A stretch of DNA of 64,000 nucleotides from Escherichia coli (GTDB lineage: Bacteria > Pseudomonadota > Gammaproteobacteria > Enterobacterales > Enterobacteriaceae): NCBI RefSeq assembly GCF_024223415.1, contig NZ_CP100500.1; one strand, 5' to 3'. The notes below the pieces were generated by a model. The model did no database searches and was not told the origin of the DNA. It saw nothing but the letters and a program-made list of their open reading frames with translations. Shown piece after piece: positions 60,895 through 62,742 of the stretch (position 1 is its first letter; every line of letters starts with the position of its first letter). The position numbers and the translations under genes were made by a program.

Positions 60895-62742
60895 ATGAAA
60901 ATGACTTTGCCGTTTAAACCCCATGTGCTGGCACTAATTTGCAGTGCCGGGCTTTGTGCCGCCTCTGCCGGGCTCTATATAAAAAGCCGCACAGTGGAAG
61001 CGCCCGTGGAACCGCAATCGACACAACTGGCTGTGTCTGACGCTGCCGCGGTTACGCTTCCTGCAACGGTTTCCGCACCTCCCGTAACACCCGCCGTCGT
61101 CAAATCCGCATTCAGCACTGCACAAATAGATCAATGGGTCGCGCCCGTCGCGCTGTATCCCGACGCCCTACTTTCGCAGGTGCTGATGGCATCAACCTAT
61201 CCGACAAACGTTGCTCAAGCAGTGCAATGGTCGCACGATAATCCACTTAAACAAGGCGATGCTGCTATTCAGGCGGTATCTGACCAGCCGTGGGACGCTA
61301 GCGTCAAATCACTGGTGGCCTTTCCACAATTGATGGCGTTGATGGGCGAAAACCCGCAATGGGTGCAAAACCTGGGCGATGCTTTTCTGGCGCAGCCGCA
61401 GGACGTGATGGACTCGGTACAACGATTGCGGCAACTGGCGCAACAAACCGGCTCGCTGAAGTCATCAACCGAACAGAAAGTTATTACCACAACGAAGAAA
61501 ACTGTACCGGTAACACAGACAGTCACGGCTCCCGTCATACCATCCAATACCGTTTCAACTGCCAACCCCGTCATTACAGAGCCTGCAACAACCGTCATTT
61601 CCATTGAGCCCGCCAATCCTGATGTGGTCTATATTCCCAACTACAACCCAACCGTGGTTTACGGGAACTGGGCCAATACTGCGTATCCGCCGGTTTATCT
61701 GCCACCACCAGCCGGAGAACCGTTTGTTGACAGCTTTGTGCGCGGATTCGGCTATAGCATGGGCGTTGCTACCACGTACGCACTATTCAGCAGCATCGAC
61801 TGGGATGACGACGATCATGACCATCATCATGACGATGATTATCATAACCACGATGGCGGTCATCGTGACGGTAATGGCTGGCAACACAACGGCGACAACA
61901 TCAATATCGACGTCAACAATTTCAACCGTATCACCGGTGAGCATCTTACTGATAAGAATATGGCATGGCGGCACAATCCAAACTACCGTAATGGTGTGCC
62001 CTATCATGATCAGGATATGGCAAAGCGGTTTCATCAAACCGATGTCAACGGCGAAATGAGCGCCACGCAGTTACCTGCCCCAACGCGCGACAGCCAGCGC
62101 CAGGCGGCAGCAAGTCAGTTTCAGCAACGAACACACGCCGCACCAGTCATTACACGAGATACCCAACGTCAGGCAGCGGCACAGCGGTTTAATGAAGCTG
62201 AACACTATGGGAGCTATGACGACTTCCGCGACTTCAGCCGTCGTCAACCACTGACCCAGCAACAAAAGGACGCCGCTCGTCAGCGTTATCAGTCGGCCTC
62301 TCCTGAGCAGCGTCAGGCAGTCCGCGAGAAAATGCAGACTAACCCGCAGAACCAGCAGAGAAGAGAGGCGGCGCGCCAGCGTATTCAGTCAGCCTCGCCT
62401 GAGCAGCGCCAGGCAGTCCGCGAGAAAATGCAGACTAACCCACAGATCCAGCAGCGAAGAGACGCAGCGCGTGAGCGTATTCAGTCAGCCTCGCCTGAGC
62501 AGCGCCAGGTGTTTAAGGAAAAAGTACAGCAGCGCCCACTGAACCAACAGCAACGTGATAACGCCCGCCAGCGTGTTCAATCAGCATCACCTGAACAACG
62601 TCAGGTTTTTCGGGAGAAAGTTCAGGAAAGCCGCCCACAACGTCCAAACGACAGTAACCATACTGCCAGGCTGAATAACGATCAACGGTCAGCAGTACGC
62701 GAACGTCTCTCTGAGCGCGGAGCAAGGCGACTGGAAAGGTAA
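60895..62742 (+). CDS. yacH: DUF3300-type secreted protein YacH with C-terminal repeat domain
   Basis: 615-aa ORF; signal peptide; Asp/His-rich tract DWDDDDHDHHHDDDYHNHDGGH; four C-terminal repeats of ARQR-QSASPEQRQ-REK-Q. Confidence 0.9.
   Translation: MKMTLPFKPHVLALICSAGLCAASAGLYIKSRTVEAPVEPQSTQLAVSDAAAVTLPATVSAPPVTPAVVKSAFSTAQIDQWVAPVALYPDALLSQVLMASTYPTNVAQAVQWSHDNPLKQGDAAIQAVSDQPWDASVKSLVAFPQLMALMGENPQWVQNLGDAFLAQPQDVMDSVQRLRQLAQQTGSLKSSTEQKVITTTKKTVPVTQTVTAPVIPSNTVSTANPVITEPATTVISIEPANPDVVYIPNYNPTVVYGNWANTAYPPVYLPPPAGEPFVDSFVRGFGYSMGVATTYALFSSIDWDDDDHDHHHDDDYHNHDGGHRDGNGWQHNGDNINIDVNNFNRITGEHLTDKNMAWRHNPNYRNGVPYHDQDMAKRFHQTDVNGEMSATQLPAPTRDSQRQAAASQFQQRTHAAPVITRDTQRQAAAQRFNEAEHYGSYDDFRDFSRRQPLTQQQKDAARQRYQSASPEQRQAVREKMQTNPQNQQRREAARQRIQSASPEQRQAVREKMQTNPQIQQRRDAARERIQSASPEQRQVFKEKVQQRPLNQQQRDNARQRVQSASPEQRQVFREKVQESRPQRPNDSNHTARLNNDQRSAVRERLSERGARRLER
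62269..62652 (+). repeat. intragenic tandem repeat array in yacH (four units of about 96 bp / 32 aa)
   Basis: Units begin near 62269, 62365, 62461, 62557; e.g. cgccagcgtattcagtcagcctcgcctgagcagcgccaggcagtccgcgagaaaatgcag repeated with substitutions. Confidence 0.8.

Follow-up and report, generated by a model that had tools for sequence, protein, structure and literature searches.

Does the copy number of the tandem repeat in the Escherichia coli gene yacH differ between strains, and what might this repeat and the Asp/His-rich tract upstream of it contribute to the encoded protein? The gene occupies positions 60895..62742 on the plus strand of a 64,000-nucleotide (nt) stretch of contig NZ_CP100500.1 (here called the window). 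According to the open reading frame (ORF) list, Pfam, and the RefSeq annotation, it encodes an envelope protein of the DUF3300 family (615 amino acids, or aa, plus a stop codon), and RefSeq gives the name yacH to the same gene in 5,425 of 5,426 complete E. coli genomes. A first-pass annotation, made from the sequence alone, had described a plausible metal-binding tract and a four-unit array whose copy number might vary between strains. Both segments were found to change length in frame among E. coli alleles, and the amino acid sequences of both are constrained.

Copy-number variation of the 96-bp array

The array (62269..62652, plus strand) consists of four tandem units of 96 bp (32 aa), arranged A-A-B-C, which start at 62269, 62365, 62461, and 62557, all in frame, with the last one ending at 62652. 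It was delimited by unit alignment and by Tandem Repeats Finder (TRF), which reported a period of 96 with 2.5 copies (88% match; score 377) or, alternatively, 3.7 copies (77% match). Adjacent units are similar at the start of the array (88% DNA identity and an exact run of 32 nt between units 0 and 1; 74% identity and an exact run of 36 nt between units 1 and 2), and unit 3 shares just 58 to 61% identity with the others. The unit number, unit length, and coordinates given in the first-pass annotation therefore stand, but its placement of the array at the extreme C terminus does not: a basic tail of 29 aa (62653..62739, plus strand; isoelectric point, pI, 11.8), in which the motif LNxEQRxAVRERLSE..R is kept across genera, comes after it. 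The array itself is strongly basic (pI 11.6).

To describe allelic variation, matches to yacH were taken from 5,425 complete E. coli genomes, and allele frequencies were estimated from samples of 40 and 60 matches drawn at even intervals. In the 40-match sample, which covered the whole gene, about half of the loci had the K-12 length of 1,854 nt. The other lengths were 1,758 nt (i.e., 1,854 minus 96), 1,764, 1,782, 1,815, and 1,848 nt, plus a frameshifted copy of 1,742 nt. Alignment of representatives revealed four units in the window allele, K-12, and GPEC1054 and three units in YF-1, 2016C04-116, and ATCC 25922. Across the array region, the 60-match sample comprised 32 four-unit matches, 20 three-unit matches, and 8 split matches. 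Four of the split matches were retrieved, of which three had three units and one, from strain 1105, had two (553 aa). The remaining four were placed by their coordinates, three being the same as those of three-unit matches and one closely similar, which brings the three-unit total to approximately 27. The estimated shares in this sample are thus ~53% four-unit, ~45% three-unit, and ~2% two-unit alleles.

The protein database added a five-unit allele, P0004 (648 aa; A-A-A-B-C), whose three A units are identical, as well as a 17-aa partial-unit duplication (P0098) and a 4-aa duplication (P0107). Just 5' of the array lie two degenerate copies of a TRDxQRQAAA motif (62083..62217, plus strand; aa 397 to 441), read from the sequence. 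Part of this region is duplicated in the 662-aa proteins P0001 to P0003, which carry a 45-aa (135-bp) tandem duplication of AAPVITRDTQRQAAAQRFNEAEHYGSYDDFHDFSRRQPLTQQQKD (window-equivalent ~62140..62275). The same 45-aa duplication of AAPVITRDTQRQAAAQRFNEAEHYGSYDDFHDFSRRQPLTQQQKD was found on 19 contigs, one of which is 4.85 Mb long.

The expectation that repeat number would differ between strains was therefore borne out, with E. coli alleles of two, three, four, and five units that arose more than once. The unit length is a multiple of three, the copy number differs within the species, and gain or loss is recurrent, as in a coding variable-number tandem repeat (VNTR). Approximately 99% of the genomes (5,369 of 5,425) have one match over at least 80% of yacH, and the intact alleles all keep the reading frame. 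We found no description of a yacH repeat polymorphism in the literature searched, of which coverage was incomplete.

Array changes are recurrent because different lineages lost different units. YF-1 is A-B-C, and its units are identical at 96 of 96 positions to units 0, 2, and 3 of GPEC1054; the two genes differ by just six single nucleotide polymorphisms in 1.8 kb but also by a whole 96-bp unit and, in the tract, by an indel of 39 bp. ATCC 25922, in contrast, is A-A followed by a B/C chimera, and strain 1105 is A followed by a B/C chimera. Separate whole-unit events number at least three or four. The chimeric B/C unit marks a crossover within units. The usual threshold of exact identity for exchange in E. 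coli is ~25 bp, and the exact runs of 32 to 36 nt between adjacent units are long enough for homologous or slipped-strand exchange. Because the 96-bp units have these runs in common, whole units would be added or removed by unequal recombination or slipped mispairing, giving arrays of two to five copies.

The Asp/His-rich tract and its length variants

The Asp/His-rich loop DWDDDDHDHHHDDDYHNHDGGHRDGNGWQHNGDN spans 61798..61899 on the plus strand (aa 302 to 335; 34 aa), as the first-pass annotation had placed it. Asp (12 residues) and His (8 residues) together occupy 20 of the 34 positions, compared with 6.2% across the remainder of YacH (binomial P = 4e-16); the tract has a pI of 4.5 and no Glu. 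It is built of micro-repeats of NAY codons (i.e., those for Asp, His, Tyr, and Asn), which make up 25 of the 34 codons, and TRF detected a period of 12 within it at 61805..61839.

The tract is a second in-frame indel hotspot of yacH, one that the first-pass annotation overlooked. Among the 120 nearest protein clusters, it occurs in 23 variants of length or sequence, ranging from 27 to 38 aa. At the DNA level, the differences include a 24-bp tandem duplication (ATCC 25922), a 6-bp duplication, and a 39-bp deletion (GPEC1054), and the window allele has lost a single CAT and a single GAT codon. Approximately 80% of the 60-match genomic sample had the K-12 tract length, ~10% were longer by 2 aa, and ~5% were shorter by 13 aa; the window's allele, shorter by 2 aa, was seen once, as was a frameshifted copy. 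The tract probably gains and loses 1 to 13 codons when replication slips at runs of CAT, GAT, or GAC or at short direct repeats.

An 8-bp deletion at the tract site makes yacH a pseudogene in Salmonella Typhimurium UK-1, 14028s, SL1344, and D23580 (PMC3391293, PMC10048834). This deletion in several strains, together with the occasional frameshifted E. coli copy, is what one would expect if yacH were a phase-variable contingency gene switched by slippage in the tract. Nearly all of the indels are multiples of three, however, and only ~1% of the genomes are disrupted; moreover, there is no homopolymer or 4-, 5-, or 7-nt repeat, and the sampled clonal lineages are uniform. We rejected phase variation, since the indels are in frame, and regard it as extremely unlikely.

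Two disrupted E. coli copies were noted. In E69 (locus L012, 2501..5083), yacH is broken after codon ~354 by an insertion of ~0.73 kb with an oppositely oriented ORF of 167 aa; by its size, it is a candidate IS1-like insertion. In 025542-1 (L053), where yacH is annotated as frameshifted, a 164-bp segment directly after the tract is inverted (window-equivalent 61853..62016), with a boundary at the short palindrome CACGATG...CATCGTG. This could be a true micro-inversion or an assembly error.

Constraint, predicted structure, and possible functions

Ratios of nonsynonymous to synonymous substitution rates (dN/dS; Nei-Gojobori) between E. coli alleles were 0.04 to 0.13 for the array, ~0.15 for the tract, and 0.10 to 0.14 overall. 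Purifying selection thus acts on the amino acid sequences of the two modules, and their length is free to vary.

The assignment to DUF3300 agrees with the Pfam search: PF11737 covers aa 75 to 331 (61117..61887, plus strand) with E = 4e-78, a score of 262.4 bits against a cutoff of 25, and profile positions 2 to 227 of 227. NCBIfam and PADLOC scans of YacH assigned no family. An AlphaFold2 model built from 126 sequences (mean predicted local distance difference test score, pLDDT, of 75) resolved this domain into a very confident helical subdomain (aa 75 to 184; pLDDT >95 for aa 75 to 200), a Thr/Val/Pro linker, and a subsequent beta region. The tract is modeled as a disordered loop (pLDDT <50 at aa 317 to 330), and each unit of the array is given two helices (eight in all; pLDDT, 80 to 87), in line with the earlier guess that the repeats would be helical. 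The only hydrophobic segment of YacH in a Kyte-Doolittle scan lies at aa 9 to 30 (60919..60984, plus strand) and coincides with a predicted helix (aa 9 to 30). An ASA|G motif is readable in this N-terminal segment, which might act as a signal peptide or might anchor YacH in the membrane, so that the secretion named in the first-pass annotation is putative. A structural search with YacH found no solved neighbor, and a sequence search of PDB chains returned just designed helical repeats and NDUFB3, at E values of at least 0.2.

We consider it probable that YacH is a periplasm-facing DUF3300 protein with two in-frame, length-variable modules under sequence constraint. It would be a nonessential envelope protein held or exported by its N-terminal segment, with the remainder predicted to face the periplasm, and its conserved core would bear two lineage-specific modules. 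The first would be a flexible loop of GAY/CAY/TAY/AAY codon micro-repeats, for which the likeliest role would be the binding of divalent cations (of the Zn/Ni/Cu class) or protons by clustered His and Asp residues. The second would be the strongly basic helical array, for which purifying selection on sequence combined with free length fits an adjustable spacer, avidity, or binding surface of variable reach or valency. The analysis demonstrates the anatomy, the polymorphism and its recurrence, the constraint, and the predicted secondary structure; the periplasmic location, the binding of metals or other cations, and any phenotypic consequence of copy number are what we infer.

The same modules might instead be neutral low-complexity filler: in a dispensable protein whose surface accommodates change, slippage-prone DNA would keep producing Asp/His-type codon runs and Q/R-rich repeat units, whose composition and length would reflect mutation bias and not function. 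The prevalence of NAY codons in the tract (25 of 34) and the absence of any Glu from 25 orthologs agree with this explanation, as do the toleration of tract lengths of 20 to 38 aa and of two to five array copies, the different repeat architectures of other genera, the pseudogenes in S. Typhimurium (PMC3391293) and in E. coli E69, ZF8-1, 025542-1, and UC4316, and the normal growth of yacH deletion mutants (PMC7376861, PMC9600279). Nevertheless, filler would not be expected to show a dN/dS of 0.04 to 0.13 in the array, a frame kept in ~99% of genomes, an array predicted to be helical with fair confidence, or an Asp/His character kept across genera in which YacH is just 45 to 57% identical; Asp/His-rich loops also recur at the tract site in a few unrelated DUF3300 proteins (P0181 and P0187). 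We therefore view neutral filler as rather unlikely, although it is the strongest of the rival explanations.

Metal binding by the tract is plausible, given a loop that is predicted to be disordered and a composition retained in all of the Enterobacteriaceae genera examined. We nevertheless propose it only tentatively and would not predict it with even confidence, because NAY-codon slippage could produce and preserve such a composition unaided by selection and because no link to metal regulation emerged. A related but distinct proposal is that the acidic His-rich loop, instead of being a transition metal site, responds to pH or binds polycations (Mg/Ca, protamine, or antimicrobial peptides) and works together with the basic helical tail to sense charge at the envelope. 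Published responses to cationic peptides speak for this proposal: yacH transcription drops on exposure to protamine and cecropin A, the deletion mutant survives protamine better than its parent (PMC9600279), and expression shifts modestly with a cathelicidin-type peptide (PMC6737244). Along with regulation by CpxR (PMC9600279) and Rob-dependent transcription under butanol stress (PMC7537768), the protamine survival and peptide response locate yacH within the biology of envelope stress. The juxtaposition of a loop with 12 Asp and 8 His (pI 4.5) and a basic region (pI 11.6) would suit charge sensing as well. Yet single studies report these phenotypes, which are weak and have no link to the tract, and nothing separates this proposal from metal binding; we judge it unlikely.

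The CpxR link also bears on the array, which might be a series of tandem CpxP/Spy-like LTXXQ helical hairpins, making YacH a Cpx-regulated periplasmic chaperone or adaptor of variable valency. Like CpxP, Spy, and ZraP, YacH has an S/T-P-E-Q-(R/Q)-Q motif at helix N termini (in the AlphaFold2 model, SASPEQRQ lies at the predicted helix starts of the array), is predicted to be periplasmic, and is linked to Cpx (PMC9600279); the pairwise similarity is weak. In a single BLASTP comparison, the array and CpxP shared 36% identity over 92 aa (E = 5e-4), with SASPEQRQ aligned to both LTXXQ motifs. The Smith-Waterman score was 81 compared with a shuffle mean of 51.5 (standard deviation, 8.0; z = 3.7) and was reached by 1 to 4 of 1,000 shuffles. 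The Pfam, profile, and fold tests, in contrast, all failed for the YacH array: Pfam LTXXQ (PF07813) had no match even at E values of up to 10 in the window protein and 28 ortholog tails, hhalign gave probabilities of 11% for CpxP and 3% for Spy, searches of PDB sequences with unit and tail profiles missed CpxP, Spy, and ZraP, and the structural search gave no fold match. In addition, the S/T-P-E-Q-R motif is a generic N-terminal helix cap and weakly matches DUF3106 and RskA_N too, and the subthreshold Pfam matches of the array to these two families were attributed to the generic S/T-P-E-x-R form of the cap. Kinship of the array with LTXXQ proteins is thus quite improbable. An equally doubtful composite would make YacH a Cpx/Rob-controlled periplasmic stress protein, in which the acidic His-rich loop captures metal ions or cationic peptides and a stack of CpxP/Spy-like LTXXQ hairpins, variable in valency, engages clients in the envelope or anionic surfaces. 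If this composite were true, the natural alleles of two to five units would set how well different E. coli lineages tolerate envelope stress.

Several points weigh against the account that we prefer, in which a periplasm-facing protein carries two constrained modules of variable length. The longest exact run between B and C in the present allele is 5 nt, which leaves the B/C chimera unexplained, and the sampled K-12 derivatives are all of one length, as are the sampled O157:H7 genomes; because these lineages are uniform, change is slow and the locus is not hypermutable. The periplasmic location depends solely on one N-terminal hydrophobic helix. A nonexhaustive regulon search found no link to a metal regulon, the neighbors being acnB and lpdA and the published regulation being by CpxR and Rob. 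Slippage of DNA alone would yield a tract of NAY codons without Glu and could account for part of the composition seen, so that selection for Asp/His chemistry would not be required. Lastly, the modules may matter little, since two to five copies are tolerated, other genera differ in repeat architecture, and yacH is disrupted in several lineages (PMC3391293).

Relatives, known systems, and the surroundings of yacH

A search of a representative library returned 9,568 DUF3300 relatives, and a scan of species genomes yielded 38 loci, nearly all from Enterobacteriaceae, in which yacH always lies between acnB and lpdA (~35 species). Across genera, YacH is 45 to 57% identical to the window protein and the flanking proteins are 91 to 100% identical, which points to yacH as a fast-evolving gene in a stable neighborhood. 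Every Enterobacteriaceae ortholog examined has the Asp/His tract (20 to 34 aa, with 5 to 13 Asp, 3 to 11 His, and no Glu). Distant DUF3300 proteins have, at the same site, WGxGDVNINVNRYNNINVN...WxH with one or two His residues, and the few Asp/His-rich loops in unrelated family members (P0181 and P0187) appear to be independent. Because all of the Enterobacteriaceae orthologs examined have the tract and distant DUF3300 proteins are without it, it is a lineage-specific loop insertion at a conserved turn of the domain ("DW...NINVN").

Among the orthologs compared, the 32-aa array is confined to Escherichia. In Klebsiella, Citrobacter, Kluyvera, and Atlantibacter, the unit is QNPTAQQQQRRExAKSHV (18 aa; 54-nt period), present in two or three copies; the units of one uncultured enterobacterium are STPEQRQARRENVQQRV (19 aa; 57-bp period), and the array of AST85, a divergent E. 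coli allele class, has a period of 102 nt. One and the same short motif, S/T-P-x-Q-R/Q-Q followed by a basic helix, has undergone expansion independently several times. Between the repeats and the tail, non-Escherichia YacH proteins (e.g., L020, L025, and L043) have a conserved NALSGNDSRSPSWQAQQQRGxQSR segment, which is largely lost in Escherichia.

Like the secreted proteins known from the DUF3300 family, YacH has a full-length Pfam match, an N-terminal hydrophobic leader, and a basic low-complexity C-terminal tail, and it conserves the family motifs APIALYPD, VVYVPxYNP, DW, and WxHNPxxRxGVPY; it differs in adding the Asp/His loop and, in Escherichia, the 32-aa array. His/Asp-rich flexible loops are known from periplasmic metal proteins (e.g., the ZnuA loop and the ZinT N terminus), and the RcnA loop encoded at the VNTR locus STTR5 is His rich. 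The YacH tract resembles loops of the ZnuA/RcnA/HypB type in clustering its 8 His and 12 Asp residues within a flexible 34-aa segment (pLDDT <50), but it has neither homology to these metal proteins nor a metal-regulated context. STTR5, a 6-bp VNTR in the Ni/Co efflux gene yohM/rcnA of Salmonella Typhimurium (PMC5183578), is likewise an in-frame, length-polymorphic coding repeat. It is, however, a clean hexanucleotide that changes fast enough for outbreak typing, in a protein with a demonstrated metal function, whereas the yacH tract is an imperfect NAY run that changes slowly and has a putative metal role. With BigA STTR3 (PMC5183578) and the minisatellites of surface proteins, yacH shares multiple-of-three units, gain and loss of whole units, chimeric junction units, and lineage-homogenized arrays. 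Unlike the proteins with such minisatellites, YacH is not known to act as an adhesin or antigen, has only two to five units, and is under purifying and not diversifying selection. The array and tract therefore represent a genuine but rather commonplace polymorphism of coding repeats in an envelope protein, a kind of feature that is already known, and the yacH repeats reveal no new kind of system. As a widely conserved E. coli "y-ome" gene, yacH offers a natural allelic series (two to five helical units and at least 23 loop variants, in a protein that is constrained elsewhere) for tests of the modules. Its length differences and "frameshifts" in comparative genomics stem from repeat instability, and the locus could serve typing schemes as a slow-evolving marker.

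In the window, acnB (minus strand) and lpdA (minus strand) flank yacH, with lpdA convergent downstream. A GC-rich hairpin, AGCGGC-N7-GCCGCT, with an A run and a T run on its flanks (62754..62783, no strand assigned) was read directly from the sequence and is probably a bidirectional terminator common to the two convergent genes. A scan for promoter and terminator consensus sequences missed this hairpin, and its sole "promoter" match falls within the Asp/His tract. The acnB-yacH intergenic region contains a CpxR-box-like sequence, GTAAATCTGAGTATA (60826..60840, minus strand), 55 to 69 nt upstream of the yacH start codon and with one mismatch to GTAAA-N5-GTAAA. The pattern is not enriched in the window overall and is not statistically distinctive; its presence is only consistent with the published regulation by CpxR (PMC9600279).

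DUF3300 genes are usually paired with a DUF2950 gene, as described for rhizobia (PMC4653623). In a Bordetella metagenome-assembled genome (L044, 1991..4842), a DUF2950 gene (E = 2e-105) begins 15 nt after the DUF3300 gene. Enterobacteriaceae yacH differs in this respect: the DUF2950 partner is absent from the locus in the window and in the ~35 Enterobacteriaceae loci, where the convergent lpdA lies downstream instead.

Nine of the 5,425 genomes fall within a band of 60 to 80% yacH identity. One of these nine, AST85 (L007, 920..2779), has a yacH of 619 aa with saturated synonymous divergence between acnB and lpdA genes that are 100% identical to those of the window, which suggests a localized allelic replacement from another lineage. 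Six or seven yacH matches lie on E. coli records labeled as plasmids. Finally, a contig labeled Chryseobacterium sp. 18061 (L041) carries an acnB-yacH locus of the Enterobacteriaceae type, with an AcnB 94% identical to that of the window, and this assembly is probably mislabeled or contaminated.

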